A stretch of 40,000 nt of DNA from Planctomycetota bacterium (GCA_018242625.1 JAFEBO010000006.1:241132-281131); one strand, 5' to 3'. Positions 4,596-35,633 are shown, counted from the first letter of the stretch. Notes: generated by a model from the letters alone, not told the origin. A program made the numbers and translations.

Positions 4596-4822
4596 GGCTC
4601 GATCCTTCCTCTTTCCATACTCCCCGCCGCCCGCCCCGGTTCTCTCACAGAGCGAACATCCCCCAAACTTCCGTCCGCTGCTCTCTCCGCCTTTATCGAA
4701 TCCCCGGCCTCTCCCCCTGAACCCCGCCGGCACATTCACCCCTTCTAGCACGTATTTCCGCCGCCTCGCCCCCCGTGCCCGCAGAATGCAGAAGAAGACC
4801 CCGCCAAGGCTATCCTGCCCGC

Positions 4823-6436: not shown

Positions 6437-6552
6437 GAACGCTTCCACAGCGTCCCAGCCCGGTTATTCCCCGTCCCAGAACGCACTTTCATCCTCACAC
6501 TTCTTGGGGCGTGCACGCCCGCGCGGTATGCTCTTCTTTCGAGAGGTTCCAA

Positions 6553-7356: not shown

Positions 7357-7380
7357 GCAAAGCAATCCACACCAAAAGAA

Positions 7381-7412
7381 AAACCCCGGCCGCAAAGCCG
7401 GGGCTTTTTTTC
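7381..7412 (+). terminator. rho-independent terminator (A-tract upstream, so possibly bidirectional)
   Basis: Stem CCCCGGC (7384-7390) pairs with GCCGGGG (7398-7404), followed by a T-run at 7405-7412. It sits between the convergent genes ending at 7356 (+) and 7425 (-). Confidence 0.8.
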
Positions 7413-7424
7413 TTGTCCGATCAA

Positions 7425-11146: not shown

Positions 11147-12127
11147 TCACTCTTCCCCCAGCCCAGGCACATGCCTCACCATGCTCGACACGTACTTGAA
11201 CACGTTGTCACAGAACATCATCACCCCCACACCCTTCTGCTTCGTGTCGCGCTCCAGCACCCGCCGGGCGCCCTCGTAGATCAACCCGCTGGAAGGCCCC
11301 GCGAAGAGACCTTCCGTTCGACACAATTCCAGCACCCGCGTGTACGCCAGCTCGAACGGAATCTCGAGAATCTCGTCGATCTGCTTCTCATCAAACAGCT
11401 TCGTCACGTGCAGTTCGCTCTTGTTGCGAAGCCCCGGCACATCGTGCCCTTCGCTCGGCTGCACCGCGATGATCCTGATCGCCGGGTTCTTCCCCTTCAG
11501 GAATCTCGACAGCCCCATCGCCGTCCCCGCCGTCCCCAGCGAAACAAACGCGTGCGTAATCCGGCCCTCGGTCTGTCTCCAGATCTCCGGCCCGGTCGTC
11601 CGCACGTGCGCCGCCACGTTCAGCTCATTCTCGTACTGGTTCGGCATCACGTAATGGTCCTTCTGCGCTTTCGCATACGACCTGGCGATGCCGATCGAAC
11701 CCTCGCCCATGCCCGGGCTCGGACACATCTGATCGTTGATGACATCCACATCCGCCCCCGCGATGCGCAGCAGCACTCTCTTCTCCAGCGGGACTTTCTG
11801 CGGCACAACCGCCCGCATCGCATACCCCTTCGCCGACGCCATCGCCGCCAGGCTGATCCCCGTGTTGCCGCTCGTCGGCTCCACGATCCCCCGGCCGCTC
11901 GCCCGCGTCTCGCCGCGCCTGAGTTCCCCGCGACTCTCCAGATCGCGGATCATCTCCGACGCGGCGCGGTCCTTGATCGAACCGAACGGATTCAACCACT
12001 CCAGTTTCGCGTACAACTCAAAGGCCGGTGCCGGGTTCATCTTCCCGATCCGCACCATCGGCGAGGGATTCTCCTCGCCCGGAAGCATCTCGAAAATGCT
12101 GTCGTACACGCGTGTCCGATGATTCAT
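11147..12127 (-). CDS. PLP-dependent cysteine synthase family protein (CysK/CysM-like)
   Basis: 326 aa. It has the PLP-lysine motif NPFGSIKDRAA, plus EPTSGNTGISLA and a glycine loop region (LGTAGTAMG). Confidence 0.88.
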   Translation of the reverse strand: MNHRTRVYDSIFEMLPGEENPSPMVRIGKMNPAPAFELYAKLEWLNPFGSIKDRAASEMIRDLESRGELRRGETRASGRGIVEPTSGNTGISLAAMASAKGYAMRAVVPQKVPLEKRVLLRIAGADVDVINDQMCPSPGMGEGSIGIARSYAKAQKDHYVMPNQYENELNVAAHVRTTGPEIWRQTEGRITHAFVSLGTAGTAMGLSRFLKGKNPAIRIIAVQPSEGHDVPGLRNKSELHVTKLFDEKQIDEILEIPFELAYTRVLELCRTEGLFAGPSSGLIYEGARRVLERDTKQKGVGVMMFCDNVFKYVSSMVRHVPGLGEE

Positions 12128-12429
12128 GCCTTCTCACTCACAGTCTCGCCCCGCGGGGCGTAACGCCGCCCGTGGAACGCAAAGGTCCGTCCGATCGCCT
12201 GTTCAAATGACCCGGTTTCGCGGCACATCCGCGCCGGCGCGATTACGCGCAGCGCGTACACAGCGCATCGGCGCTCGCCACGCATCGAACGAAGCTGTTC
12301 AAAGCCTCATGCTGCATACAGCAAGTATACCGCACCCAGCAAGGACGGGACCACGCGAGAGAGCCCGCCCGCCCTTCCCCGCCACATGTCTCTGTGGATC
12401 GGAGTCTCTGCGCTGAACTCTTGCGCCTC

Positions 12430-13215
12430 TTATTTGCCCGAAAAATGCTTGTTCACGTCCGACATCATCTGCAGCGTCCGCTGCGACTGGATCGGGTTCG
12501 CATGATTCGCGACATTCCCGTTCAGAAACGTCACAATCCCCGCCGCCATCTTCGCCGAGCGCTCCGGACCCATCTTCTTCCGCATCTCTTCCCGCTGCTT
12601 CGTCTGCTTGCGGACATCTTCCAGGATCTCCTCGTCGCTCCGGTCGCCCCGCCCGGAAACCTGGTCGCCGATCCGCGTCCATTCGATCACCGATTTCTCA
12701 AGAAACGCGCCCCGCTCCTCGGGCGGCACCTTCGCATAGTCCACCGCGCTCGCATCCACCATGTCGAGCATAAGTTTCGCCCCGTTCTCCTGAATCTGCT
12801 CACGCGCCCGCCCGCTGATCCCCGCCGCAAAGCTCGCCAGGATCGCCGAATCCGAACTGCTCGCGTTCCGCACCCGGTCCGCAAACTCCCGGATCAGCTT
12901 CAGCCGCTCCTTGATCGGAAGCGCATTGAAGTCGCTCCGCAAGAAGGTGTACTCCGCCAGATCATCCACCGGATCAAGCTCGTAGTTGGGCCGATGGTGC
13001 AGCCGCCAGTACTCATACCCCCCCGCCGCGCCGCCCCCGACAAGCACCACCGCCCCGGCAATCACCAGCCGCCGCCTCGCCGCCGCACTCCCCCACAAAG
13101 CACCAGCGATCCTCGCAATCGCCGCGCGCACCACGCCCGGCCCCGCCGGCCGTCCGGCCGCCGCCGCATCGATCTGCAGGTCGTCAAGCAGCGATCCCGC
13201 CTTGTGCTCGCTCAT
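12430..13215 (-). CDS. hypothetical membrane-anchored protein
   Basis: 261-aa ORF with a single predicted TM segment (LVIAGAVVLVGGGAAGGY) after an Ala/Gly-rich N-terminus. The composition is protein-like, but I recognise no motif. Confidence 0.55.
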   Translation of the reverse strand: MSEHKAGSLLDDLQIDAAAAGRPAGPGVVRAAIARIAGALWGSAAARRRLVIAGAVVLVGGGAAGGYEYWRLHHRPNYELDPVDDLAEYTFLRSDFNALPIKERLKLIREFADRVRNASSSDSAILASFAAGISGRAREQIQENGAKLMLDMVDASAVDYAKVPPEERGAFLEKSVIEWTRIGDQVSGRGDRSDEEILEDVRKQTKQREEMRKKMGPERSAKMAAGIVTFLNGNVANHANPIQSQRTLQMMSDVNKHFSGK

Positions 13216-13222
13216 AAACCCC

Positions 13223-13900
13223 TCACTTCAGCCGATCGTTCGGCTCTTTGAAAAGCTGCATGATCAGTTCCGCAATCTGCGCACTCGACGGCCGCGCAAT
13301 CGACCAGTCCACCCGCATCCCGTTGTCCATGTAAAGGGCATTCCGCCTGTCCATCGATGCCGGCCTCACCTTGTGCCACTGATCGCCGCACGCCAGCACC
13401 GGCCAGAAGTTCTTCTCGTAGAACTTCGTGATCGAAAACTCCGGCCGCGTCAGCTTCAGATTGATGAAGTCCGTCAGCAGCATGATCGAGCCCGGCCAGT
13501 ATTCATAGCTGCTCCCGCCCACCCGCCAGGTCGGTTCGAGATTCGTCGCCGGATCCGTGCCGATCACGTCCGAAGGACACTTCCACGGCTCGTTCGAACG
13601 GAAATACCCGTCCGCCTCCTTGATCGGCCGCGGCGCATCCAGGTATTCCCCCACCACCGCCGGAAACGTCGGCCGGTCCGTCGCCTCGATCAGCCCGCTC
13701 GCAAACGGCAGCAGCCCCTTCGACTTGGTGTCCATGTACATCTGCAGCCCCTTGCCGATGCTCGACAGGTTCGCCATGCACTTGACGCGCCGCGCCGTCT
13801 CCCGCGCGCCGCTCATCGCCGGTAGCGCAATGCCCAAGAGCAGCGCAATGACCGCGATGACCACCAGCAGCTCGATCAGGGTGAACGCAACTCGACGCAT
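13223..13900 (-). CDS. prepilin-type N-terminal cleavage/methylation domain protein (DUF1559-like pseudopilin)
   Basis: The N-terminus [28 protein letters not shown] is the classic type IV pilin/pseudopilin leader plus hydrophobic helix. The body resembles the large planctomycete DUF1559 family. Confidence 0.85.
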
Positions 13901-23473: not shown

Positions 23474-23830
23474 TCACTCCCCCTCATACACACACCCGCA
23501 CTTGGCCGTTTCCCGTAATTCAATCCGGTACATCCCCGGCAGCCCCGGCCGAATCCGCTCCCACAACCACTTCGTGATCCGCTCCGCCGTCGGATTCTCC
23601 AGCCCCTTCACCTCATTCAGACACCGGTGATCCAACTCCTCCACCACCGGGTCCACAATCTTCCTCATCTCCGAAAAATCCATCACCCACCCGCTCCGCT
23701 CCCCAATCTCGCCCCTCACATACACCACAAACCGGTACGAATGCCCGTGCATCCGCGCACACTTATGCCCCGCCGGCACGTGCGGCAGCCAGTGCGCCGC
23801 TTCAAACCCAAACTCCCGAAAAAGCATCAT
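23474..23830 (-). CDS. queD: 6-carboxy-5,6,7,8-tetrahydropterin synthase (high-GC, resident copy)
   Basis: ORF 23474..23881. The likely start is at MMLFREFGFEAAH (23830). QueD hallmarks are present: FEAAHWLP, HKCARMHGHSY, GWVMDF, LDHRCLNE. The Gly-rich extension upstream of the start is probably not translated. Confidence 0.88.
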   Translation of the reverse strand: MMLFREFGFEAAHWLPHVPAGHKCARMHGHSYRFVVYVRGEIGERSGWVMDFSEMRKIVDPVVEELDHRCLNEVKGLENPTAERITKWLWERIRPGLPGMYRIELRETAKCGCVYEGE

Positions 23831-23880
23831 CCCCGATGCTAGAGCCCCTCCCCCGCCCCCCGAAACCCCGCCTCCCCACA

Positions 23881-23915
23881 AGTGCCCAGTGACCAGTGAC
23901 CAGCGCCCAGCGCCC
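23881..23915. repeat. heptanucleotide tandem repeat, 5 units
   Basis: AGTGCCC AGTGACC AGTGACC AGCGCCC AGCGCCC read directly from the sequence. It lies between the frameshifted gene end (23936) and the queD start (23830). Confidence 0.9.
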
Positions 23916-23935
23916 CCCTCTCCCCCCTTGCCCCT

Positions 23936-24609
23936 TTAGCTCTTTGCCCCTTTCCCCATCTCCCCCTTCAACTCCAACACCTCCACCGGACACCCCTTCC
24001 AGTCATCCTCCCAGCACACCACCAGATCACACCCACTCGGATCGTGATCAAACCGGCTGCTCACAAACTCAAACTCGATCCGCACCCGCCTCCACTCCCA
24101 TCCACCAGCCTCCGCCCCTCACAATCCGGATACCCCGTCCCCACCGACTCCACCTCAAACCCAAGCCCTCGCGCCATCGCTCCAAACAACAACACCACCC
24201 CCTGCTCATTCACAGGCTCCCGCACCATCACCGACCCCTCGAGCGGCAGCCCCAGCCGCCTCCCAAATCGCTCCCCCTTCGTACGCCACGTCACCGCCTC
24301 CAAATCCCGAAAACTCCCAAAGAACTCCCTCCACCGCGGCAGCCACCGATCACACTCCGCCCGCGTCGGCCTCCGGTTCACCAATATCAACAAATCCCAA
24401 TACCGCTCCAAAACCTCCCGCGCACCAGGCATCTCATGCCGCGCATCCACCTCCACCCGCCTCAGCCGCCCCAACACCTCCTCCCAACTCCCCACCCCAC
24501 CCCCATTCCCACCCCCAACCCCCCCAAGCACACGCCCCCACACCCGCCCCATCTCAGCGCGTGCGGCGTCCCCCCCGCCACTCTCCATTGGCATCAGTCC
24601 ACCCCCCAA
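23936..24609 (-). pseudogene. frameshifted PD-(D/E)xK-like nuclease-fold gene
   Basis: ORF 24061..24609 ends 20 codons after ...VVLLFGAMARGLGFEVESVGTGYPDCEGRRLV. The -1 frame continues directly with WEWRRVRIEFEFVSSRFDHDPSGCDLVVCWEDDWKGCPVEVLELKGEMGKGAKS and stops at 23936. The two halves together form one coherent nuclease-like core (PD...E.R...IEFE...CD.VVCW). The frame switch must lie within 24088-24118. Confidence 0.6.
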
Positions 24610-24772
24610 AAAAGCAAAAACGCGCCACCCCCAAAGCCCACCACAGCCTCAGCCCGCACCCAAATTGCAAGAACCCCCAACCACCCTCAGTTTACCACAA
24701 CTCCCAAAATTCCAACCCCCCATTTTCCATCCCAACCGAAACAAAAACCCCATTCCCCCTTCCTCAACCCCT

Positions 24773-24787
24773 GTCTGCCAGGCAGAC
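24773..24787. promoter_or_regulatory. perfect 15-nt palindrome upstream of the HNH gene
   Basis: GTCTGCC-A-GGCAGAC, about 80 nt upstream of the ATG at 24865. The 1-nt spacer is too tight for a hairpin, so a dimeric protein-binding site is more plausible. Confidence 0.3.
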
Positions 24788-24864
24788 GCAAAGCAACCTC
24801 TTTTCCCCGCATCCGTTACGCTCTCTCCGTGCCACGCTTCCACGAAATCATCTCGCACCAGACC

Positions 24865-25635
24865 ATGTGCCACAACGAGCAGATGTCTCTTCAGCGTGGG
24901 ATGAACTTCCGCGTCCGCGCCGGCAAAGCCGGCTACTCCATCTTCCTCATGAGCGTTCGCAAAGGAGCCCCCTATCAGGACCACTGGCATGACGAGGCCG
25001 CAGGCGGCCCTCACGCCGGCATGCTCGAGTACGAAGGCCACGACGCTCCGAAAAACGTGGCGCTCCGCTCCGACCCAAAGAAAATCGACCAGCCCCAATT
25101 CCTGCCGAGCGGCAAGCCAACCGACAACGGCAAGTTCTATCAGGCCGCCATGGCCGCCAAGGCCGGCGCCGTCCCCGAAGTCGTTCAGGTTTACGAAAAG
25201 ATCGCCGATGGCCGGTGGTGCGATCGGGGGCGGTATCTTCTCGTCGATGCCGAGATCAAGACTGTTCCCATTTCAACGACGAGCAAGAAGACCCGGAAGG
25301 TCTTCCGTTTCTTTTTGAAGCCGACTGTGACCCCCGCCGCCCGTACCCGCGAAGAAGAACGCGAACTCTCAATCTCACGCCAAATCCCCACCGCTATCAA
25401 AATCGCCGTCTGGAATCGCGACCGCGGCAAGTGCGTCCAGTGCGGCAGCACCGACAACCTTCACTTCGATCATGACGTGCCACACTCCAAGGGCGGCTCC
25501 AGCTTCACCGAAGCCAACGTCAAGATCCTCTGTGCCCGCCACAATCTCGAAAAGTCGGACAAGATTCTGTCACTTGGCCCACTGCTCGGGCCACTGGTGG
25601 TTGCGGCGACGGCGTCGATGCTACGAGGAGCATAA
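24865..25635 (+). CDS. HNH endonuclease with N-terminal SRA/PUA-like putative modified-base-reader domain (type IV restriction-like)
   Basis: This is the 3' part of ORF 23896..25635; the Pro-rich 5' part is an antisense shadow. Candidate starts are 24865, 24883 and 24901. The C-terminus is a classic HNH: CVQCGSTDNLHFDHDVPHSKGG...NVKILCARHNLEKSDK. The N-terminal roughly 170 aa (GYSIFLMSVRKGAPYQDHWHDEAAG..MLEYEGHD...DQ...PEVVQVYEKIADGRWCDRGRYLLVD) follows the order of SRA/YDG-type domains as I remember them. The domain call is from memory, not from a search. Confidence 0.7.
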   Translation: MCHNEQMSLQRGMNFRVRAGKAGYSIFLMSVRKGAPYQDHWHDEAAGGPHAGMLEYEGHDAPKNVALRSDPKKIDQPQFLPSGKPTDNGKFYQAAMAAKAGAVPEVVQVYEKIADGRWCDRGRYLLVDAEIKTVPISTTSKKTRKVFRFFLKPTVTPAARTREEERELSISRQIPTAIKIAVWNRDRGKCVQCGSTDNLHFDHDVPHSKGGSSFTEANVKILCARHNLEKSDKILSLGPLLGPLVVAATASMLRGA

Positions 25636-25700: not shown

Positions 25701-27413
25701 ATGCGAAAACTGCTTGTACTAGGCTGCTCTTCCACCAAGCGCGACACGCACAACAAGCTGCCCGCGGTTGATCTTTACGATGGGCCGTTTTATCGCGTCC
25801 TTCGCACATTTCTACGAGATCACTTGTGGCCACAAGACTTATCAGTCGCGGTTTTGTCTGCTGAGTACGGACTGATGGGCGGCTTGACTCACATTCAAAC
25901 CTATGACCGCGTGATGACAAAGGAACGCGCCGTTCAGCTATCTGGTGATGTACGCCACACCCTTTTAGGCTGGCGGGACTGTCACTCGAGCATTCAATTA
26001 GTGCTCGGCGAAACGTACTTGGGCGCTATTCAACCAGCTGCAAATGAGCTTTGGCGACGAAGCGTCGATCTTGCAGCGGGTCCAATAGGGATGAAGCTGC
26101 AGTATTTGCACAATGCGCTTCATCGCGGCGCAAAGAAGGCCCCTCGATGCCGAGACGATGTGCCCAGCGCAGACGGACGCCCGATGTACTTCCTTCCGGA
26201 CTGGGATGACTTTGTCGATACGAATTTTGATTTTGTTCGAGACAAGTTTTCATGCAGTGCTCGGGCCGATCGAGATGAAACCCACTGTTCGGCGCTGGTA
26301 AAGCCAAAGCGGTTAGCAGATGGGATTCTGGTGAGCCTTGCCCAGAGCTTTGGGGGGAAGGGGCTGCTGAGAGCCCTCCAGGCGAGTTCGCCAGACTCTC
26401 TTGCACCCAAGCCTGTAAAACGGCATTTTGGGTTAGCGGATGACCAGTGGGCTTTCGGAGACTGCGGCGCCTTTAGTTATGTGAACGAAGAATCCCCGAC
26501 CATTTCGGTTGAGCAGGCTGTCGCTACCTACGAGTTGTACGGGTTTGATCTCGGCGCAAGCGTAGATCACATCCCGGTTCCCGAGGTCGTTAGAAAGGGA
26601 AAGCGCGTAACACTGACAGACGCGGAGCGTCGCAAGCGGGTAGCGCTCACTCGATCGAACGCGCAAGATTTTTTGGACTTGTGGCGCAGGCGCGAGTGCC
26701 GCTTTAACCCAGTGGGAATCGTTCAAGCCCTATCGCCTAGACAATTCGCCTCGTCGGTCGCTGAATACGCTGAAATGGGGTATCGCAGAATCGCGCTTGG
26801 TGGCCTAGTTCCCAGGTCCGACGACGAAATCTTGGCCATTGTGACCGCTGTGTGTAAGAAGATGAGCAGCCTTCGCCAGCGTCCCTGGCTTCACCTAATG
26901 GGCATTTATCGTCCAAACTTGCAAGCGGCGTTTCGTCGATTGCGCGTCGACAGCTTTGATAGCGCCACGTACTTTCGAAAAGCTTGGCTGCGGTCGGATC
27001 AAAACTATCTCGGGGCAACGGGCAATTGGTACGCAGCAATCCGGGTTCCGCCATCCCACGATCCTCGCACAGCGAAGCGCCTCGCCTCCACTGGTGTTTC
27101 GCTTTCAAAGATCCAGCGACTTGAAGCGGCGGCCCTTCAGGCCCTGCGCGCATATGCCGGAAGACGAATTGGAATAGAACGATGCCTCAAGTGCGTCCTC
27201 CACTACGATCTGTTGTTGCCACGTGGCGAGACAGACGCCAAGTCCATGGAAGAGGCCTATCGACGCACGCTTTCTGATCGGCCCTGGGAATTGTGCGAAT
27301 GCCCTATTTGCAAGAAAGTAGGAATTGACGTACTGATCTTCCGCGGGCTCAACCGCAACAAGCGTCGTGGGGCGCACAACACCCTTATGCTGTACAACAC
27401 TATTGCGCGATAA
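25701..27413 (+). CDS. DUF6884-like N-terminal domain fused to a TGT-fold transglycosylase (DpdA-like, putative DNA 7-deazaguanine transglycosylase)
   Basis: 570 aa. C-terminal TGT-fold landmarks occur in the expected order: FGDCGAFSY (cf. DSGGFQ), RIALGGLVPRSDDE (cf. AIGGLxVGE), LHLMGIYRP (cf. LMGVGxP), VDSFDSATYFRKA (cf. FDCVxPTRxA). The zinc site is CECPIC...GAHN (CxCxxC...H). The N-terminal roughly 150 aa, LLVLGCSSTKRD...PAVDLYDGPFY...VAVLSAEYGLMGG...IQTYDRVMT, matches the pattern I recall for DUF6884. Confidence 0.8.
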   Translation: MRKLLVLGCSSTKRDTHNKLPAVDLYDGPFYRVLRTFLRDHLWPQDLSVAVLSAEYGLMGGLTHIQTYDRVMTKERAVQLSGDVRHTLLGWRDCHSSIQLVLGETYLGAIQPAANELWRRSVDLAAGPIGMKLQYLHNALHRGAKKAPRCRDDVPSADGRPMYFLPDWDDFVDTNFDFVRDKFSCSARADRDETHCSALVKPKRLADGILVSLAQSFGGKGLLRALQASSPDSLAPKPVKRHFGLADDQWAFGDCGAFSYVNEESPTISVEQAVATYELYGFDLGASVDHIPVPEVVRKGKRVTLTDAERRKRVALTRSNAQDFLDLWRRRECRFNPVGIVQALSPRQFASSVAEYAEMGYRRIALGGLVPRSDDEILAIVTAVCKKMSSLRQRPWLHLMGIYRPNLQAAFRRLRVDSFDSATYFRKAWLRSDQNYLGATGNWYAAIRVPPSHDPRTAKRLASTGVSLSKIQRLEAAALQALRAYAGRRIGIERCLKCVLHYDLLLPRGETDAKSMEEAYRRTLSDRPWELCECPICKKVGIDVLIFRGLNRNKRRGAHNTLMLYNTIAR

Positions 27414-27454
27414 AATTGCGTCTGCTTCCGATTGCGACGAGGTGGCGAGAAATC

Positions 27455-29887
27455 ATGCTGATAGAACCGGCAGATTTTGTTGGACGCTTGCAGGCCTCAA
27501 TACCACTCCAATTCGGCGCGAGACCGCCGAATCCGCGCCAGTTGGAATGTATTGAAGCACCCTTACAGGCGCCTTTGTTTATCGTCGCCGGTCCGGGAAC
27601 TGGCAAAACGACAGTGTTGGTGCTGCGGGCTCTTCGCATGGTTTTTGTGGAAGGCCTATTGCCCGAGCAGTTGCTGATTACGACCTTTACCCGAAAGGCG
27701 GCTGAAGAGTTGCGATCGCGGCTGCTCACTTGGGGAATGCAACTTCAAGAAAGTCTTGTGGCTCAGCCCCCTGCTCATTGGCAAGCTCAACACCGGGTGC
27801 GTTCAAACGCATTGGACTTGAATCGATTTGTAACTGGCACCCTTGATAGCGTTTGTGAGGACCTTCTTTCTCGAGCTCGCGAACCTGGAGAAATCACGCC
27901 AGCACTAATCGATGGATTTGTTGCGGACGCGCTTTTGTTGAGACACGCCGTCTATCCGTCTGGCGCTTATGCTGATGGTGCCATCGACCCTGATTTGGCC
28001 GCATATCTCGCCCAATTTAATTGGCAACAAGAAGCACCGACCAATGTCGGCGAATTGGTCAAACTGGTGCGGCTGGTAAGCGATCGGCTTACTCATGATT
28101 TGGCAGACGTAACACACTTTGCTGGAAGCTCCGCCCATTCCAACGCAAGACACAGGCTGGCGGATGTTCACGACCGCTATCGCCGGCATCTAGCGGCAGA
28201 ATATCGGCTGGATTTCTCCACACTTGAGCACACTTTTTTTACCAGGTTGGCGGCGGGTCGCCTGGATCGTGTACTTCACGGAATCGCTGCTGTGTTGGTA
28301 GATGAATACCAAGACACGAATCCCCTGCAAGAGCAAATCTACTTCACGCTCGCCGACCGCCTCGGTGCATCGCTCACCATCGTGGGCGACGACGATCAAT
28401 CACTCTACCGTTTTCGAGGCGCCACGGTGGAAATTTTTCGAGACTTCGTCGCGCGATGGACTGCAGCAGGGGGTGCAACACCCTCTGTCAAATTTCTCAT
28501 AGACAACTATCGCTCTACCCCAGAGATTGTTGCGTTTTTTAATGACTTTATCGAGAGCGATCCATCCTTTGCCGGTGCTCGTGTTACACCTCCCAAACCG
28601 AGAATTGTTCCACAGAGATCAAGCGTGCAGTTGCCCGTATTTGGGCTATTTCGACCGACTCGAGAGGATTTGGCGGACGCGATTTGTGGTATCGTCCGCG
28701 ATGTATTTCGCGGTAACGGTCATCGGGTGGTAGCAAATGGTCAAACCTATTTGATAGAGCGTGCCGCGTCCGGTGGAGATGTCGGCGACTCCGTGCTCCT
28801 CTCTCACTCTGTGGAGGAGTTTAAAGAGACAAGAGGGCAAACCCCGCCGGAAGCCAGACTTCCCGCGCTCCTTCGAGTACGACTTGGGCCGACCATAAAT
28901 GTTTACAACCCGCGAGGCAGATCGCTTCGCGATGTACCGGAGGTTCAACAACTCCTGGGACTCATGCTTGAGTGTATTGACCCCGATCAACCGAATGGGG
29001 CGGCGGGCGGGATCCAAGCCTCAATGAGGTTGCGTCGGGATTCACAAAGATACCTGCCAATCTGGCGTGACGCCGCAAGAGCATTGATCGCCACCAACCC
29101 CGAACCGCGATCACCCCATCGGCTTAGAGATTTTGTGGACGGCTGGCAACGACGAGTGCCGCAATCTGCAGCCGTGGGAGCTTGGCCACAGGAATGGCCT
29201 GCGCTTGATCTATTCTTTAAGCTCCTCGTGTGGCTTCCTGAATTGCGGGCGAGCCCAGAGGGGCAGGTATATTTGGAAGCGGTCGCCCGCGCAATTGCAG
29301 CTTCGGCAACGGTTTCAAATTATCGTTCGATGATCGTTTTTGGACAGACCCCCCACGGACAACAGAGCGTCAGCTCGTTCATTTCTTCGGTACTGCAGCC
29401 CCTCGCGGAATCGGCGGTGGATATTGACGAAGAGGTCATGCCGGATGTGCCCCGGTCGGCGTTTCCGATCATGACGATACACCAAGCCAAGGGCTTGGAG
29501 TTTCCACTCGTCTTTGTTGACGTTGGATCGGACTATAAAAGAGAACACCCACTGAATCGCTTTAAGCGACATCCAACTCAGCCAGATGGTGTACATAACT
29601 TAGAAGACGACCTGGCTCATTGCACCCCCGTCGGCGCTTCTCGCACCAGCCGCGACGGAATTACTCGCGCGTTTGACGACCTGCGAAGACTTTATTACGT
29701 GGCATACAGCAGGCCGGAGACGGTGTTAATTCTCGTTGGGCTGAACAAGTGTCTGGAAGTCGCCCGACCGCTCCCGCATGTTGCGACTTGGTACCGGCAG
29801 GATGGCTCCTGGGCGTGGCTTTTGCAGCCACCTGGTCAACGCAGGCGACCCGCGATGCCCAATTCACTCCCACTCACATTGATATAG
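27455..29887 (+). CDS. UvrD/PcrA-type SF1 DNA helicase
   Basis: ORF 27416..29887 has a TTG at 27416, but an ATG at 27455 follows GAGGTGG. The SF1 motifs are: I AGPGTGKTT, Ia TFTRKAAEEL, II VLVDEYQDTNPLQ, III TIVGDDDQSLYRFRGA, IV NYRSTPEIV, V TIHQAKGLEFPLVFV, VI RRLYYVAYSRPETVLIL. Confidence 0.92.
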   Translation: MLIEPADFVGRLQASIPLQFGARPPNPRQLECIEAPLQAPLFIVAGPGTGKTTVLVLRALRMVFVEGLLPEQLLITTFTRKAAEELRSRLLTWGMQLQESLVAQPPAHWQAQHRVRSNALDLNRFVTGTLDSVCEDLLSRAREPGEITPALIDGFVADALLLRHAVYPSGAYADGAIDPDLAAYLAQFNWQQEAPTNVGELVKLVRLVSDRLTHDLADVTHFAGSSAHSNARHRLADVHDRYRRHLAAEYRLDFSTLEHTFFTRLAAGRLDRVLHGIAAVLVDEYQDTNPLQEQIYFTLADRLGASLTIVGDDDQSLYRFRGATVEIFRDFVARWTAAGGATPSVKFLIDNYRSTPEIVAFFNDFIESDPSFAGARVTPPKPRIVPQRSSVQLPVFGLFRPTREDLADAICGIVRDVFRGNGHRVVANGQTYLIERAASGGDVGDSVLLSHSVEEFKETRGQTPPEARLPALLRVRLGPTINVYNPRGRSLRDVPEVQQLLGLMLECIDPDQPNGAAGGIQASMRLRRDSQRYLPIWRDAARALIATNPEPRSPHRLRDFVDGWQRRVPQSAAVGAWPQEWPALDLFFKLLVWLPELRASPEGQVYLEAVARAIAASATVSNYRSMIVFGQTPHGQQSVSSFISSVLQPLAESAVDIDEEVMPDVPRSAFPIMTIHQAKGLEFPLVFVDVGSDYKREHPLNRFKRHPTQPDGVHNLEDDLAHCTPVGASRTSRDGITRAFDDLRRLYYVAYSRPETVLILVGLNKCLEVARPLPHVATWYRQDGSWAWLLQPPGQRRRPAMPNSLPLTLI

Positions 29888-29895
29888 GGAATTCC

Positions 29896-31077
29896 ATGCC
29901 CATCGGAAATCGACGATTGCCATTGGTCCTGCCCCGCTACAGCTTGACGGGCGATCTTCTTTCTTTTCGGCGTTGCCCCCTTCAATACCGGTATTTGAAC
30001 GGAAGCAAGCTCCCGCCTTCCAGGCCCGTTCAGCTCTGGTTTGGCGAGTTTATTCATGGCGTTCTTGAGATGTCGTATCGCATCTGGCGGGATACTACTC
30101 CCAGGCTCTCTTTTCCTTGGCCTGAACATCGAGCGGACTGGCGCGCAGAGCCCGATCCAACATGGGCAACACATGATATTGGGCGGATTGGCTATTCAGT
30201 CGAACAGGCATTGCGAGCACAAGGAAAGAGTTCCCGCGATAGGGACGCTCGTGAAGCGGCTTATCGACGAGCGTTTAGGGCGGTGAACGACATCGGGCCG
30301 CATCTTTTTCCACTCGTAGTTGCGGCAGAGGAAAAAATCATTGGTACGAGGCTGGTTGGCGGCGGACCAACTCAGGGTCGTACCGACCGATACGAATTGC
30401 ACGGCATTGTTGACGTGCTTACAAGTCTCACCCTTGGGATGGTGGATCGTTCAAATCTCATCCGCACGGCGATACAAGATGTTACGTCCGGGCTCAACGG
30501 CAATTACGAGGTCATCGTCGACTATAAGGGTGCGCGGCGGCCCGACTTGGCGGATCCAGATCGACCATATTGGCAACAGGGCGAATGGCAGGTGCTTACC
30601 TACGCATGGCTGCGCGGGCGTCAACCCGGTGCAATTCCTGTTGCTGCGGGCGTTCTGCTTTACATTAACGAACTCTCTCCGGGCCAGGACGATATCGCGG
30701 CAATGAAGCGGGCGCTTAGTTCCAACAATTCAGACGTGCTTCCAGCGCAAGGAACTGCGGATTGGTATGCACTGACAAACTGGAGACCTGGACTTCAAAT
30801 CCCCGCGCTAACGGACGAGTTTCGATTCAAACGAACCATTCGCGTTGTTCCTGTAGACCAGAGTCGGGTTAATGCTGCGCTGTCTGCATTTGACTCTGTT
30901 GTGAACGAGATTGAGCAGTGCGTCACTAGCGAACTGGTCGCGGGTACGATCGAACGACAATGGTCGCCGTGTGGGGACGAAGAAACCTGTAACGCATGCG
31001 ACTGTCGGTATTTTTGCCCTCATCCGGCTCCTCGCGGCCCTTCCTTGCGTCCCGTGGAGGCTCCGCATGCGCCTTAG
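29896..31077 (+). CDS. Cas4/AddB-like PD-(D/E)xK nuclease with C-terminal Fe-S cysteine cluster
   Basis: It lies inside ORF 29749..31077. The ATG at 29896 sits 8 nt after the helicase stop and follows AGGGA. The motifs are an N-terminal Cys (SFRRCPLQYRY), FGEFIHGVLE, GIVDVL, VIVDYKG (D-x-K), QVLTYAWL (QxxxY) and a C-terminal CNACDCRYFC (C-x2-C-x5-C). Confidence 0.85.
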   Translation: MPIGNRRLPLVLPRYSLTGDLLSFRRCPLQYRYLNGSKLPPSRPVQLWFGEFIHGVLEMSYRIWRDTTPRLSFPWPEHRADWRAEPDPTWATHDIGRIGYSVEQALRAQGKSSRDRDAREAAYRRAFRAVNDIGPHLFPLVVAAEEKIIGTRLVGGGPTQGRTDRYELHGIVDVLTSLTLGMVDRSNLIRTAIQDVTSGLNGNYEVIVDYKGARRPDLADPDRPYWQQGEWQVLTYAWLRGRQPGAIPVAAGVLLYINELSPGQDDIAAMKRALSSNNSDVLPAQGTADWYALTNWRPGLQIPALTDEFRFKRTIRVVPVDQSRVNAALSAFDSVVNEIEQCVTSELVAGTIERQWSPCGDEETCNACDCRYFCPHPAPRGPSLRPVEAPHAP

Positions 31078-31102
31078 TTCGTCCATCTTCTAATGCGCGA
31101 CG

Positions 31103-31492
31103 CTATGAACTGGTCTCTTGGTCTTCTCCCCGATAGATGCAGCCGCATTTGGAGGTTTCAAAAAGCTCGAGCTTGCAGAGTCCGGGCATCGACGGCTTCA
31201 GTCGCGACCAAATCCAGCGAGCGATGACCTCGGCTGTCGGCACAGCTAGGCCTTCTATTTCGTTTAAATACTGATGATCCAGTTGGTCCACCACGGGGTC
31301 CACGTTGCGTCGAATCTCTGCAAAATCCATCACCCAGCCTGTGCTGCAATTGATTTGGCCACGGACGTGAACAACGAGTCGGTACGAGTGTCCGTGCAAC
31401 CGCGCGCACTTGTGTTCGGGCGGCACATTTGAAAGTCGATGTGCGGCTTCAAACCGAAACTCTCGAAATACAACCATGCCTCCATTGTACAT
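31103..31492 (-). CDS. queD: 6-carboxy-5,6,7,8-tetrahydropterin synthase (low-GC, island-borne second copy)
   Basis: ORF 31103..31534. The start is ambiguous: ATG at 31492 (MYNGGMVVF) or 31477 (MVVFREF). QueD hallmarks are FEAAHRL, HKCARLHGHSY, GWVMDF, LDHQYLNE. By hand ungapped alignment, 72 of 117 positions are identical to the copy at 23474-23830. Confidence 0.88.
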   Translation of the reverse strand: MYNGGMVVFREFRFEAAHRLSNVPPEHKCARLHGHSYRLVVHVRGQINCSTGWVMDFAEIRRNVDPVVDQLDHQYLNEIEGLAVPTAEVIARWIWSRLKPSMPGLCKLELFETSKCGCIYRGEDQETSS

Positions 31493-31553
31493 CCGCATGT
31501 TCTGCAACTTTTTCCGGGCCCTTTTCCAACGCACTCCCTGCTCGCAACCAGCG

Positions 31554-32162
31554 TCATCTGGTCGCGGCCAGAATCCTTATCCTCTCCCGCGGCAATCGCG
31601 CCGCCCCCACAAACGTCACCTCCTGCACCTCCGCCGCCGAAAACTCGCACGCCCCCGGCGGCAGGAACGTCCCGGCCCCCCTCGGCGATTTTCTGCCACC
31701 GCTGCACCTCGGCGCCCCGGAATTGAACCGGCAGAACTGCACGCCCGGATTCAGAGCCAACATCGCCTCGGTCTCCACCACCAACACCTTGCAGTCTTCC
31801 CCCGCATAACGCGCAAAGTGGTTGCGCCCCGCCACGATCGGCCCGCGCTCGTCTCCCGGCCAGAAGAACACTCTTTCATTGAGCAACTCAATCACGTCTT
31901 CGAAGCTCGTCCCCGGCTCCATCTCCATATTGCCGGCATGAAGCGGCGCCTGATCGCGCACATGCACCACCCGCTCACCGATCCGCAGCGTCAGGTGTTG
32001 CTTGCGCTTTTGTCGTAAGTAGGAAGTGTCCGCCGCCCGCTCCATCAGCACGCGCGCAGACTCTAGCAGTCCACCCTCCAGAATCGCGTCAACATTTGCC
32101 GCCGCCGTCAAATGAAAAAGCCGCGGCCGCCGCACTGCAAATTGCCAAAGGTCGATTCCCAT
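31554..32162 (-). CDS. hypothetical protein, possible DarT-like (DUF4433-like) ADP-ribosyltransferase fold
   Basis: 202 aa, with GAGAAGG upstream of the ATG. LFHLTAAANVDAILEGGLL, then LRQKRK, FFWPG, FCRFNSGAP and a late AAEVQEVTF parallel the H-x-T / R / N / E-containing segments of DarT as I recall them. This is weak, by-eye similarity only. Confidence 0.55.
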   Translation of the reverse strand: MGIDLWQFAVRRPRLFHLTAAANVDAILEGGLLESARVLMERAADTSYLRQKRKQHLTLRIGERVVHVRDQAPLHAGNMEMEPGTSFEDVIELLNERVFFWPGDERGPIVAGRNHFARYAGEDCKVLVVETEAMLALNPGVQFCRFNSGAPRCSGGRKSPRGAGTFLPPGACEFSAAEVQEVTFVGAARLPRERIRILAATR

Positions 32163-32216: not shown

Positions 32217-32513
32217 CTACACCGCCGCCCGACCCACACGCAGCGGCAACTCCAACTTCACCCGCCCCCAAAACCGCCGCGGCAGCCAAACGCCCGCAAA
32301 CGTTCGCACTCCCCACATCACCCACTGCCACCTCCCCACCGCATGCTCCACAAACCCCACCAGCCGCGGCGGCACAAACACATCACGCCATAAAAACTCC
32401 AGCCCGCACTCCGAGCACCGCCCCTCCACCGGACACGATTCCCTCCACGCCCCCACAGCGCCCGCCTGGTCATACCCACACCGCGGACATGCCAGCCTCG
32501 CCTCACCACTCAT
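32217..32513 (-). CDS. small zinc-ribbon protein (CPxCG...CxECG)
   Basis: 98 aa. CPRCGYDQ...CSECGLEF has two Cys pairs followed by a Trp-rich hydrophobic stretch. Coding status is uncertain, and it may be a truncated member of a longer family. Confidence 0.4.
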   Translation of the reverse strand: MSGEARLACPRCGYDQAGAVGAWRESCPVEGRCSECGLEFLWRDVFVPPRLVGFVEHAVGRWQWVMWGVRTFAGVWLPRRFWGRVKLELPLRVGRAAV

Positions 32514-32698: not shown

Positions 32699-33847
32699 AT
32701 GCCCACCCCCATCTCCATCCGCAACATCACCAAAGAGTTCCCCTCACTAGGTGGGGGCGGCCCAGCCACCACGCGCGCCGTCGACAACATCTCCCTCGAA
32801 ATCAACACCGGCGAACTCTTCTTCCTCCTCGGGCCCTCCGGGTGCGGCAAGACCACACTCCTCCGAATGATCGCCGGATTCATCGACCCCTCACACGGCC
32901 AGATCCTCTTCGGCTCCCGCGATGTCACCCACCTGCCGCCCAACCAGCGAAACACCGGCATGGTCTTCCAGTCCTACGCCCTCTGGCCTCACATGACCAT
33001 CGAGGCCAACGTCGCCTTCGGCCTCGACGTGCGAAAGACCCCAGCAAATGAGGCCAAAACACGCATCCACGACGCGCTCGCCGCCGTCCGCATGGACCAG
33101 TACGCAAAGCGAAAACCCAACCAGCTCTCCGGCGGCCAGCAGCAACGCGTCGCCCTCGCCCGCGCACTGGTCATCCGCCCAGATGTCCTCCTCCTCGACG
33201 AACCCCTCTCAAACCTCGACGCAAAACTCCGCCTCGAGCTCCGCTCCGAAATCCGACGCATCTGCAAAGAGAGCGGCATAACCACCGTCTACGTCACCCA
33301 CGATCAGAAAGAAGCCCTGAGCATGGCCGACCGCGTCGCCATCCTCCGCGCCGGCAAACTCGAACAGCTCGGCGCACCCGCCGACCTCTATAAACGCCCC
33401 CACTCCCGCTTCGTCGCCGAATTCCTCGGCGAAACCAACATCCTCGAAGGCACCGTCCTCTCGCTCAGCTCCCGCCCCGACCCTTCCAGGAAAAACGCCT
33501 CCCTCACCACCGCCACCATCCAGACCCAGGCCGGCGATCTCACCGGCCTCATCCCCGAAGGCGTCTCCCCCCCAGCCCCCGGCACCCAAGCCCTCATCTC
33601 CATCCGCCCAGAATCCATCTGCCTCGGCAACCTCGCCAACTCAGAAACCCCCCACCGCGGCAAGGTCTCCTCCGCCCTCTACTTAGGCGAAGTCGAACAA
33701 GGCCACATCCAAGTAAAGTCCTATAACTTCAAGTTCCTGCGCATCGCATCCCTCGCCAACCCCCTCGCCGCAGGCAGCGAAGACCACCAGGTCCACTTCA
33801 CCGACGCCGTCGTCCTCCCCCTCACCGACGCCCAGTCCGGCACCTGA
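32699..33847 (+). CDS. ABC transporter ATP-binding protein (PotA/FbpC-like importer ATPase with C-terminal TOBE-like domain)
   Basis: It lies inside ORF 32639..33847, with an ATG at 32699 (MPTPISIRNITKEF). It has Walker A GPSGCGKTT, Q-loop, signature LSGGQQQRVALARAL, Walker B LLLDEPLSNLD, and an H-loop in VTHDQ. No permease or binding-protein gene is adjacent. Confidence 0.9.
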   Translation: MPTPISIRNITKEFPSLGGGGPATTRAVDNISLEINTGELFFLLGPSGCGKTTLLRMIAGFIDPSHGQILFGSRDVTHLPPNQRNTGMVFQSYALWPHMTIEANVAFGLDVRKTPANEAKTRIHDALAAVRMDQYAKRKPNQLSGGQQQRVALARALVIRPDVLLLDEPLSNLDAKLRLELRSEIRRICKESGITTVYVTHDQKEALSMADRVAILRAGKLEQLGAPADLYKRPHSRFVAEFLGETNILEGTVLSLSSRPDPSRKNASLTTATIQTQAGDLTGLIPEGVSPPAPGTQALISIRPESICLGNLANSETPHRGKVSSALYLGEVEQGHIQVKSYNFKFLRIASLANPLAAGSEDHQVHFTDAVVLPLTDAQSGT

Positions 33848-33975
33848 CCCCAGCGCCGCACCCCGCGTCACCCTCACTCCAAACCGCCCCCCCTCCCCCC
33901 GCGCGCAAAGCCACCCGCGCCAAAGCTCCCTCACGCCCCCACTCACCCCATCCCAATCAACGTCCTATAATAGCA

Positions 33976-34422
33976 TCACCCCCGCGTTGATTTGAACTTC
34001 AACGTCCGATTGATCGGATGTTCTCCCAGATACACCCCCACCTGCTTCATCATCGCCTTCGGCAGCACCCGCACCTTCCCCGCCTGCCCCCACTCCATCC
34101 ATCGAAACTCTAGGTGCTTCTCCCGCGCCTTGATCCGCTCCGGCGCGCGCACTTCAAACACAAACGAGTACTCATGCCGCGACTTCCCCTTCTGCACGAA
34201 CCTGTTCTCATGCACCAGGACTAGCCGCCCCACCCCCACCGCCTTCCCCGTCTCCTCCAAAAACTCCCGCCTAAGCGCCCTCTCCGCCGACTCCCCCGGC
34301 TCCACATGCCCCCCCGGCAAATACCAATAGTCCGCCCCCCTGTTCCGACACAACAAAATCTGCCCCTCCCGCAGACAAATCCCCCTTGCCAACACCTCAA
34401 TTTCTTTCACTCGCTTCGCCAT
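33976..34422 (-). CDS. NUDIX hydrolase
   Basis: 148 aa. The Nudix box GGHVEPGESAERALRREFLEETG fits GX5EX7REUXEEXGU. Confidence 0.9.
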   Translation of the reverse strand: MAKRVKEIEVLARGICLREGQILLCRNRGADYWYLPGGHVEPGESAERALRREFLEETGKAVGVGRLVLVHENRFVQKGKSRHEYSFVFEVRAPERIKAREKHLEFRWMEWGQAGKVRVLPKAMMKQVGVYLGEHPINRTLKFKSTRG

Positions 34423-34472
34423 CCCCCCAGCCTAGCGACCCCACCAAAATCTTCAACCCACCCCACCCCGGG

Positions 34473-34500
34473 TCCACCCCAATCCACCCCAATCCACCCA
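34473..34500. repeat. 10-nt tandem repeat TCCACCCCAA, about 2.7 units
   Basis: TCCACCCCAA TCCACCCCAA TCCACCCA read directly, in the divergent Nudix/parB intergenic region. Confidence 0.85.
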
Positions 34501-34516
34501 CCCCCCACCCACAAAC

Positions 34517-34532
34517 TGTTCCGCGCGGAACA
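34517..34532. promoter_or_regulatory. parS-like perfect 16-bp palindrome
   Basis: TGTTCCGCGCGGAACA is a perfect palindrome. It matches the canonical parS TGTTTCACGTGAAACA at 12 of 16 positions, and all four differences are symmetric. It lies 87 nt upstream of the parB ATG. Confidence 0.55.
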
Positions 34533-34618
34533 TGGCGGAATTCACTTCCTGGATGTCTTTGGTACGATCATGCCCCATGTTCCTCGAGGAACATGGGGGA
34601 GCAGTCAAGGAGGATGCC

Positions 34619-35560
34619 ATGGCGGATGTTGTTGCTGGGTCGGACAAGGTGCGGAAGTTGGGGCGCGGGTTGTCGGCGCTTTTGCAGACGCCGGTGCGGG
34701 TGGACTTGCCGGGGAAGGTTGGGGGTGAGGTGAGTGTGGTGGCGGAGGTGGTGGGGGGAGGGGGGCTCGAGATGGTGGAGGTGGGGGCGATCAGCCCTAG
34801 CCGGTTTCAGGCGCGGCGGGTGTTTGATGAGGCGACGCTGAAGGGGTTGGCGGAGTCGATTCGGCGGGATGGGGTGATGCAGCCGGTTATTTTACGTCCT
34901 ATAACCGGTGGGTTTGAGTTGGTGGCGGGGGAGCGGCGGTGGCGGGCGGCGAAGATGGCGGGGCTGGCGCGGGTGCCGGCGATTGTGCGGGAGATGAGTG
35001 ATGAGCAGTCGGCGGAGTGGGGGCTGGTTGAGAACGTGCAGCGGGAGGACTTGAACCCGATGGATCGGGCGACGGGATTGAGGATGATGCAGGAACGGTT
35101 TGGGCTGACGCACGGGCAGATTGCGGAGCGTGTGGGGCTGGAGCGTGCGACGGTGACGAACCTGGTGCGGCTGACGGAATTGGAGGATGAGATTGCGGAG
35201 CTGCTGGCGGGCGGCGCGTTGACGAGTGCGCACGGGAAGTCGCTGCTGGCTGCCGCGCCGGGCGCGGGGCGTGTGGCGCTTGCGAAGCGTGCGCATGCGG
35301 AGTCGTGGAGCGTGCGCCGGCTTGATGCGGCGATCGCGGCGGGCGTGCGCGAGATTGAGGCGCGGGAGAAGAAGGAGACGATTCGCGGCGATGGTGGGGG
35401 GCGGAGCGCGATTGTGCTTGATCTTGAGCGCAGGCTCTCGCAGCAGCTTGGGACGAAGGTTGAGATCTCGATGAAGAATTCGAAGAAGGGGACGATCATC
35501 ATCGAGTTTTACGGGCTTGATCACTTTGATGGCCTGGCGGCGAAGATGGGTCTGAAGTAA
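34619..35560 (+). CDS. parB: ParB/Spo0J chromosome partitioning protein
   Basis: It lies inside ORF 34532..35560. The ATG at 34619 follows AAGGAGG. It has KLGRGLSALL, the ParB box GERRWRAAKMAGL, an HTH (GLTHGQIAERVGLERATVTNLVRL), and a C-terminal dimerisation segment (GTIIIEFYGLDHFDGL). No parA is adjacent. Confidence 0.92.
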   Translation: MADVVAGSDKVRKLGRGLSALLQTPVRVDLPGKVGGEVSVVAEVVGGGGLEMVEVGAISPSRFQARRVFDEATLKGLAESIRRDGVMQPVILRPITGGFELVAGERRWRAAKMAGLARVPAIVREMSDEQSAEWGLVENVQREDLNPMDRATGLRMMQERFGLTHGQIAERVGLERATVTNLVRLTELEDEIAELLAGGALTSAHGKSLLAAAPGAGRVALAKRAHAESWSVRRLDAAIAAGVREIEAREKKETIRGDGGGRSAIVLDLERRLSQQLGTKVEISMKNSKKGTIIIEFYGLDHFDGLAAKMGLK

Positions 35561-35633
35561 GTTTGCGGGCGCTGGTGTGCGGGTTGTGCGCGCGCTGTCT
35601 GCGCGGCGCGGGTGCGCTGCGGGTTACGGCGCA

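Follow-up and report, generated by a model that had tools for sequence, protein, structure and literature searches.

The closest described counterpart of the locus reported here is Dpd, the dpdA-to-dpdK system of Salmonella Montevideo. In a 2023 study, Dpd ranked first in size and complexity among known restriction-modification systems, a complexity that was left unexplained; the same study found that DpdA, DpdB with ATP, and DpdC are enough for canonical modification in vitro, the DpdB ATPase being required for the Salmonella DpdA (PMC10164549). In a 2016 review, it was still an open question which enzyme carries out restriction in Dpd (PMC5699537). We have analyzed a stretch of 40,000 nucleotides from a Planctomycetota bacterium (JAFEBO010000006.1:241132-281131), called the window from here on, in which a UvrD/AddA-like helicase and an AddB-like nuclease, coded by adjacent genes at 27455 to 31077, follow a gene that fuses DpdC-like and DpdA domains. 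This AddAB-like motor-nuclease pair is, in our view, probably the swappable restriction arm of a Dpd-like system of only three to four genes that does without DpdB and DpdD to DpdK.

The resemblance to Dpd is found in the modification enzyme of the cassette, a fusion protein of 570 amino acids (25701 to 27413, plus strand). Residues ~163 to 568 are a bona fide DpdA DNA-guanine transglycosylase, above the equivalog cutoff (NCBIfam NF041059, 346 bits versus a cutoff of 200), and match both the PADLOC DpdA model (E = 7.6e-99) and the S. Montevideo DpdA structure (PDB 7UI4, E = 2.5e-98). Three catalytic aspartates have been described for Salmonella DpdA (PMC10164549), and those of 7UI4 (D95, D130, and D256) align with the invariant D254, D289, and D420 of the fusion, which also has a zinc site (C532, C534, C537, and H559). 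Residues ~6 to 137 make up a DUF6884 domain (Pfam, 35.6 bits versus a cutoff of 30) with the invariant motifs CxxxK (C9...K13) and LSAxxG (S53). In Pfam, DpdC falls within DUF6884 (GATOR-GC paper), itself a distant relative of YaaA (PMC11701544). This DpdC-type domain is only ~140 amino acids long, full-length DpdC having ~310, and its match to the PADLOC DpdC model is weak (E = 2.4e-4). As in Dpd, a QueD is coded alongside.

The rest of the cassette differs from the Salmonella system. In addition to the fusion of DpdC and DpdA, neither DpdB nor DpdD to DpdK is present: tblastn searches of the 40-kb window gave no match with DpdB queries and none for DpdD, DpdE, DpdF, DpdG, DpdH, DpdJ, or DpdK, and there is no DndB-family gene among the called genes between 17.4 and 39.9 kb. 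Canonical Dpd combines SNF2, DEAD, and YprA helicases with a phospholipase D (PLD) nuclease, whereas the cassette has a UvrD-like superfamily 1 (SF1) helicase and an iron-sulfur (Fe-S) nuclease of the PD-(D/E)XK type. The pair lies outside the Dpd models of PADLOC, none of which appears among the 25 best of the 45 PADLOC matches of the helicase or among the three of the nuclease.

The fusion, the helicase, the nuclease, and QueD share a foreign composition. The G+C content (GC) is 54 to 56% in the block from ~25.7 to 31.5 kb, with no strand skew, while the surrounding window has 63% GC and a strong skew; taken one by one, the four genes of the block (25701 to 31534) range from 0.535 to 0.558 against a background of 0.63. 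Most likely, then, this compact cassette was gained horizontally as a single unit. The island is narrower than the first-pass annotation suggests, as it extends over these four genes only. The QueD gene (6-carboxytetrahydropterin synthase, 31103 to 31534, minus strand), which belongs to the pathway for 7-cyano-7-deazaguanine (preQ0), matches Pfam PTPS at E = 9.2e-37 and has a GC of 0.535, like the other three cassette genes; it is annotated at NCBI as a protein of 124 amino acids ending at 31477, and a QueD occupies the equivalent position in four other loci (L011, L013, L018, and L078).

With the nuclease alone as a query, we fetched 80 genome loci. They represent about 17 phyla, among them Planctomycetota, Acidobacteriota, Bacillota, Spirochaetota, Pseudomonadota, Myxococcota, Chloroflexota, Actinomycetota, Cyanobacteriota, Nitrospirota, Latescibacterota, Poribacteria, Armatimonadota, Elusimicrobiota, and Verrucomicrobiota. 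DpdA is coded within 10 kb of the pair in 63 of the 80. The DpdC-DpdA fusion lies immediately upstream of the helicase in ~43 of these 63, and in ~20 a separate DpdA is found inside DpdC-DpdB-DpdA-DpdB'-QueC-QueE-QueD clusters. Among the 17 loci lacking DpdA, 7 have other dpd or que genes near the pair, namely, DpdE-DpdF-DpdG(-DpdH) directly after the nuclease (two loci), DpdD/K/J (one), a DpdB/DndB-family gene at the contig edge (three), or QueD (one); 4 more are cut at the pair by contig ends, and 6 hold no relevant gene. Linkage to dpd or que genes is thus seen in 70 of the 76 informative loci, and the islands involved contain DpdB, DpdC, and QueC/D/E and sometimes DpdD/J/K or DpdE to DpdH. 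The search was also run in reverse, on metagenome contigs found with the DpdC-DpdA fusion, and the pair comes right after the fusion in 48 of the 57 loci whose downstream DNA reaches 3.8 kb or more. Same-strand adjacency of the pair to DpdA is kept across more than 10 phyla in both search directions. The first-pass annotation had tied the helicase and nuclease to TGT-like (tRNA-guanine transglycosylase-like) genes as opposed to housekeeping contexts only, and both counts bear this out.

The helicase and the nuclease are themselves almost always found together. A UvrD homolog is coded directly upstream of the nuclease in 78 of the 80 genome loci, and in the remaining two the contig ends at the nuclease. 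The gap between both genes has a median of 5.5 nucleotides (range, -1 to 51; 28 related loci). Over 115 loci, the identities of helicase and nuclease to their window counterparts are correlated (r = 0.81), while those of DpdA and nuclease are not (r = -0.26); helicase and nuclease thus co-diverge, unlike DpdA and nuclease. Functionally, helicase and nuclease make up a single unit associated with DNA modification of the DpdA type, and we infer that they form a physical complex of two subunits. Chance open reading frames (ORFs) can be discarded, since ~2,000 nuclease and ~2,500 helicase clusters (at 90% identity) share 45 to 60% identity across phyla.

What follows the modification gene is not always the same module. 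The 48 positive loci of the reverse search include a second clade of the pair, only ~28% identical to the first, whose shorter nuclease (~300 amino acids) retains the N-terminal cysteine, the aspartate, E-x-x-D-Y-K, Q...Y, and CxxCx5C. In 5 of the 9 exceptions, a NurA-like protein and a HerA ATPase replace the pair downstream of the fusion, an arrangement seen in seven loci overall, and NurA-HerA and the UvrD-nuclease pair are both present in Latescibacteria and Poribacteria. HerA-NurA is likewise an ATP-driven motor with a nuclease, takes the same slot after the DpdC-DpdA fusion, and is sometimes stacked with the UvrD-nuclease pair, but its folds are unrelated (an FtsK/HerA hexameric translocase and an RNase H-like NurA). 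The pair is therefore interchangeable with NurA-HerA modules. In a Planctomycetia locus (L007, 10001 to 14353), the two clades of the pair stand in tandem, UvrD-Nuc-UvrD'-Nuc', after one DpdC-DpdA fusion. Alternative or stacked modules in one slot are typical of effectors in defense systems.

Other loci have a complete modification set of their own. Proteobacterial loci combine full DpdA, DpdB (two copies), DpdC, and QueC/D/E sets with the pair, and no other nuclease gene was recognized among their recurrent neighbor clusters; altogether, ~19 loci code for two or three DpdB paralogs in addition to the pair. These proteobacterial islands repeatedly end in a HAD-family hydrolase (L049, 4676 to 6201; L069, 19545 to 21140), ahead of which comes either a PycTM-like membrane protein or an uncharacterized protein of 333 amino acids. 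DpdA is commonly used by phages as well. The nuclease family had no match in the 50,697 phage genomes of INPHARED and a single one among 2.9 million viral contigs, and on these counts a phage origin or an anti-restriction function of the pair was rejected.

We favor a restriction arm because modification in vitro needs only DpdA, DpdB, ATP, and DpdC (PMC10164549), because many loci own the full modification set plus the pair with no other nuclease recognized, because phage genomes do without the pair in spite of their use of DpdA, and because the slot after the modification gene accepts alternative or stacked motor-nuclease modules. An effector role of the pair is thus likely. In the system we propose, the DpdC-DpdA fusion would swap guanines of the host DNA for preQ0, possibly converting it to 7-amido-7-deazaguanine (ADG), with the precursor coming from the queuosine pathway of the host plus the QueD of the cassette. 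The helicase-nuclease would load onto DNA, translocate, and degrade it unless 7-deazaguanine marks were met, and these marks would therefore be the self signal. The first-pass annotation had already suggested a restriction arm against DNA lacking the modification. Its assignment of the pair to the effector side gains from the NurA-HerA interchange, the loci with full DpdA/B/C sets, the absence from phages, and the published modification without the pair, while for restriction itself we infer that the nuclease acts on unmodified DNA and that modification inhibits it.

Several points weigh against this reading. The pair stands directly before DpdE to DpdH in two loci and near DpdJ/DpdK in five (with DpdD in three), and a pair found alongside the canonical restriction genes is no simple replacement of them. 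Moreover, 6 of the 80 loci have the pair and no dpd or que gene in the fetched flanks, a setting at odds with a toxic restriction enzyme unless DpdA is coded elsewhere in those genomes or the copies are inactive. Disrupted pairs are found in 3 of 12 loci without DpdA versus 4 of 63 with DpdA (Fisher P = 0.08), which is suggestive of a pseudogene enrichment among DpdA-less pairs, but the difference falls short of significance and could come from errors in metagenome-assembled genomes (MAGs). Last, the compact cassette lacks DpdB, and its sole ATPase, which is the helicase here and HerA in the alternative cassettes, could serve modification instead.

The last point makes a helicase role in modification, help for the transglycosylase having been the second option of the first-pass annotation, a real alternative. 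The helicase, together with the nuclease, would open or process the duplex for guanine exchange by DpdA and substitute for the missing ATPase, a helicase-like role having been proposed for the DpdB on which Salmonella DpdA depends in vitro (PMC10164549). The alternative cassettes likewise bring an ATPase, HerA, and in the window the helicase and fusion genes are close to each other on one strand, with a gap of 41 nucleotides. Even so, we hold this explanation to be unlikely, as the loci with two or three DpdB paralogs keep the pair, it is hard to see what a strictly conserved nuclease site and Fe-S cluster would do in base exchange, phages, which commonly use DpdA, do not have the pair, and DpdA does not co-diverge with it. 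A more specific form of the restriction-arm reading joins both functions and is put forward tentatively, as a possibility rather than an expectation: the split AddAB-like motor-nuclease would scan DNA and take sparse dPreQ0 or dADG as a Chi-like "self" stop, in a minimal system of three to four genes in which the motor may also supply the ATP-dependent step of DpdB.

The pair could also be an autonomous defense module, self-sufficient against phages with a Gabija- or Nhi-like logic, that hitchhikes with Dpd genes in defense islands and does not read the mark, and the six unlinked copies are in line with this. Their identifiable neighbors are AbiEii, a reverse transcriptase, insertion sequence (IS) transposases, and an integrase fragment, that is, genes of mobile elements and defense, with at least one pair beside AbiEii and the reverse transcriptase. 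Elsewhere, the pair is joined to several different Dpd architectures, and the best PADLOC matches of the helicase are GajB models. The same-strand adjacency to DpdA over more than 10 phyla and in both search directions is, however, far tighter than the co-localization expected within defense islands, one foreign composition runs through the whole block, and a GajA-like partner is absent, all of which makes such independence distinctly unlikely. One of the unlinked pairs, in a Leptospiraceae MAG (L082), is flanked on the same strand (4647 to 7507 and 11181 to 13518) by proteins of 204, 281, 388, and 465 amino acids with no Pfam match, which may be an alternative partner module. A related pair at 41% identity is carried by the 38-kb plasmid unnamed3 of Picosynechococcus sp. 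PCC 73109 (L169), where its neighbors are AbiEii/DUF6088 and PIN toxin genes. At ~5 kb from the pair, two DEAD/DEAH helicases of 776 amino acids flank a short gene for a tRNA-guanine transglycosylase. This is a different TGT arrangement and possibly an experimental model.

The motor subunit of the pair is an SF1A helicase of 810 amino acids (27455 to 29887, plus strand; ORF limits, 27416/27455 to 29887) with no nuclease domain of its own. It matches the Pfam UvrD-helicase family (E = 4.9e-44) as well as AAA_19 and UvrD_C. Across 65 aligned homologs, conservation reaches 90% or more for each of motifs Q, I, Ia, II, III, IV, V, and VI. The motifs read VAGPGxGKT (I), TTFTRKAA (Ia), DEYQDTN (II), VGDDDQSLYRFRGA (III), NYRST (IV), MTIHQAKGLEFPLV (V), and RLYYVAYSRP (VI). 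In Foldseek searches, its AlphaFold2 model (mean predicted local distance difference test [pLDDT] score, 81.5) retrieves UvrD, PcrA, and Rep at E ~1e-24, as well as RecB and AdnB, and has its highest query TM-score to AddA (0.55 to 0.57). By motifs and by fold, the protein is a member of the UvrD/PcrA/Rep SF1A superfamily, but orthology to UvrD, PcrA, or Rep is excluded by scores far under all NCBIfam equivalog cutoffs, TIGR02785 (AddA) giving 130 bits versus 707.65.

The nuclease (393 amino acids; 29896 to 31077, plus strand; ORF limits, 29749/29896 to 31077) matches Pfam PDDEXK_1 (E = 2.4e-12), falls below every NCBIfam equivalog cutoff, and gave no match in a PDB search with its sequence profile. 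The family has 471 representatives at 50% identity among 1.84 billion proteins searched. The 28 sequences compared, from many phyla, show no variation at C27, D173, Y210, K211, Q232, Y236, C365, C368, and C374, and D209 is conserved to 90% or more, giving the order D173, D209-Y-K211, Q232...Y236, C365-x2-C368-x5-C374, and the C terminus has a conserved AP-x-AP tail. C-x2-C-x5-C plus one N-terminal cysteine is the AddB/Cas4 pattern, and a 4Fe-4S cluster is predicted at C27 and C365/C368/C374. The AlphaFold2 model (pLDDT, 76) finds the AddB chains of AddAB first (E = 1.6e-6), followed by Dna2, the Cas4-family protein ACE1, RecE, and Cas4. An Fe-S PD-(D/E)XK nuclease of the AddB/Cas4/Dna2 type fits these results, with RecB-type catalytic motifs and one plus three cysteines around the core.

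The nuclease gene starts 8 nucleotides after the helicase gene ends. The stop codon TAG occupies 29885 to 29887, a spacer of 8 nucleotides (GGAATTCC) spans 29888 to 29895, and the ATG follows at 29896, with a purine-rich, Shine-Dalgarno-like AGGGA overlapping the stop. Alignments of homologs back the start codons of both genes, the nuclease from Met1 at 29896 and the helicase from the ATG at 27455. The full SF1 motif set, the D...D-x-K...QxxxY motifs with one plus three cysteines, the 8-nucleotide spacing, and the AddB/Cas4-like Fe-S nuclease had all been named in the first-pass annotation, and conservation, coordinates, and fold searches agree with it on each.

The nuclease gene has a disrupted counterpart in a Phycisphaerales MAG (JAXMAH010000001.1), which differs from the window by a single base over 22.4 kb. 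The change is C to T at window position 30823, in codon 310 of the nuclease, and turns R310 (CGA), a nearly invariant residue, into a TGA stop, so that the annotated protein has 309 amino acids and lacks the C-terminal Fe-S cysteines. In an independent Logan assembly (SRR23459710), the gene is intact, as in the window. Either the stop arose from a sequencing error, or the MAG carries a natural knock-out allele of the nuclease.

The pair is most easily compared with the AddAB/AdnAB/RecBCD enzymes. It shares with them an SF1A motor of the UvrD fold whose best global fit is AddA, a nuclease with the AddB fold, an identical cysteine pattern (1 + CxxCx5C), and RecB-type catalytic motifs, and also the organization as adjacent, co-evolving genes. 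Unlike them, it has one motor and one nuclease and not two of each, it is mobile and tied to DNA modification rather than to recombination genes, and no Chi recognition apparatus is evident. Neither subunit has the architecture of its AddAB counterpart, as the helicase lacks the C-terminal RecB nuclease domain of AddA and the nuclease corresponds to the nuclease domain of AddB alone, a small part of that protein (Foldseek target TM-score, 0.14). The pair looks like a pared-down, split AddAB, with an AddA-like motor that has no nuclease domain and an AddB-like nuclease without the inactive helicase body.

Since the folds match AddA and AddB, the pair could be the minimal AddAB/AdnAB orthologue of the host, with a housekeeping role in double-strand break repair. 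Its place within a low-GC foreign block, the 50 to 60% identity between unrelated phyla combined with a patchy distribution, the AddA score of 130 bits against a cutoff of 707, the absence of a nuclease domain from the AddA-like subunit and of a helicase-like body from the AddB-like one, and the linkage to dpd genes make this hardly credible, and a housekeeping AddAB or UvrD orthologue was accordingly rejected. Repair of a more dedicated kind deserves separate mention. The DpdA reaction passes through an intermediate in which enzyme and DNA are covalently joined (PMC10164549), DUF6884 relatives have been associated with the binding of abasic sites (PMC11701544), and UvrD- and AddAB-type enzymes are repair proteins, so the pair might remove or resect faulty products of transglycosylation (abasic sites, nicks, or trapped covalent DpdA-DNA) and shield the host from them. 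Canonical Dpd systems and DpdA-carrying phages do without the pair, though, and the swapping with NurA-HerA, like the stacks of two or three motor-nuclease modules, resembles a diversification of effectors, so we regard dedicated repair as improbable.

Defense systems built on a helicase and a nuclease are a further point of comparison, and the parallel with Gabija and Hachiman drawn in the first-pass annotation turns out to be an analogy. The helicase-nuclease logic is shared, but the GajB models that are the best PADLOC matches of the helicase cover only parts of it, and the cassette lacks the OLD/TOPRIM protein GajA, with no GajA match among the neighboring proteins, so membership in Gabija was rejected. 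Hachiman uses a superfamily 2 DExH helicase (HamB) with a DUF1837 nuclease (HamA); the helicase of the cassette is of the SF1 UvrD type, no HamA or HamB appears among the PADLOC matches listed for five island proteins, and this assignment was rejected too. Neither system is coupled to a DNA modification enzyme. With Cas4, the nuclease has in common the PD-(D/E)XK fold, the four-cysteine Fe-S cluster (predicted in the nuclease), and weak profile matches, but it is twice the size of Cas4 and contains two insertions. A role in CRISPR adaptation was discarded, as TIGR00372 scored 20.5 bits versus a cutoff of 65 and the called genes include no cas or CRISPR context.

The archaeal BRIGADE systems are Dpd-like hybrids in which genes for 7-deazaguanine biosynthesis are combined with alternative nucleases, and a DNA2-like helicase-nuclease fusion is often part of their type I (10.1101/2025.09.15.676423). 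On haloarchaeal plasmids (Natronococcus sp. CG52, L170, and Halomicrobium plasmid H6), the match to the window nuclease (25 to 27% identity) is part of a gene whose annotation is ATP-dependent DNA helicase (1,073 amino acids in Natronococcus), which is consistent with a helicase-nuclease fusion and with the pair being one unit. BRIGADE is defined by YprA-family helicases and has been reported from haloarchaea only, whereas the cassette is bacterial, much smaller, and has no YprA.

The genes on both sides of the cassette seem to be unrelated to it. Upstream, a protein of 268 amino acids (24829 to 25635, plus strand) ends in an HNH motif slightly below the Pfam cutoff (20.8 bits), with an N-terminal region that gave no match. 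It has no homolog in any of 160 related loci and an intermediate GC (0.60), so it is probably an independent gene, and it was rejected as a part of the system. The same was concluded for the DUF7002 protein downstream (31554 to 32162, minus strand; E = 3.5e-27), with native composition and homologs in 0 of the 160 loci; it also has a very weak DarT-like match in PADLOC (E = 0.007). A second QueD (PTPS) paralog at 23474 to 23881 (minus strand) has a host-like GC of 0.62 and a strong skew. The two QueD paralogs flank the region and are by eye about two-thirds identical, and it is the copy at 31103 to 31534 that has the foreign composition. Between this second QueD and the HNH gene, ~950 bp (23882 to 24828) are extremely C rich on the plus strand (skew, -0.61) and hold long proline-rich spurious ORFs, the only called gene being one of 77 amino acids on the minus strand.

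An exact 14-nucleotide direct repeat, CCTCCACCGGACAC, occurs at 23980 to 23993 and 32423 to 32436, flanking the region from the HNH gene to the DUF7002 gene. It could be an integration scar, although it is weak evidence at such a length; there is no tRNA gene in the window, and att sites or a tRNA integration site were rejected with this repeat as the sole candidate. The cumulative GC skew reaches its minimum at ~33000 to 35600, where its sign changes, and a ParB gene (34619 to 35560, plus strand) is located at the switch. This suggests that the cassette lies within a few kilobases of a replication origin or partition region.

The compact variant of Dpd is apparently undescribed. We found no description of the pair in the searchable literature, which was covered in part, so that an earlier mention is possible, and PADLOC has no model for it. 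The GATOR-GC study required dpdAB and would for this reason miss cassettes lacking DpdB; Acidovorax and Archangium, for which that study noted dpd islands "lacking the restriction operon," are genera where the pair is present. Another hybrid containing a TGT has been reported in a BREX paper. Searches for dpdA plus dpdB and the Dpd models of PADLOC would pass over the variant that lacks DpdB.

With no more than a modification protein, a motor, and a nuclease, and spread over about 17 phyla, the system would offer a far simpler test of how 7-deazaguanine is read and unmarked DNA destroyed. It would also mean that marking by DpdA can be combined with interchangeable motor-nuclease effectors, be they the UvrD/AddB-like pair, its second, divergent clade, or NurA-HerA. 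The cultured cyanobacterium Picosynechococcus sp. PCC 73109, with a related pair on its 38-kb plasmid, could be an experimental entry point. If the Chi-like self-signal system is true, it would be a simple and widespread model for how Dpd-type systems restrict DNA.

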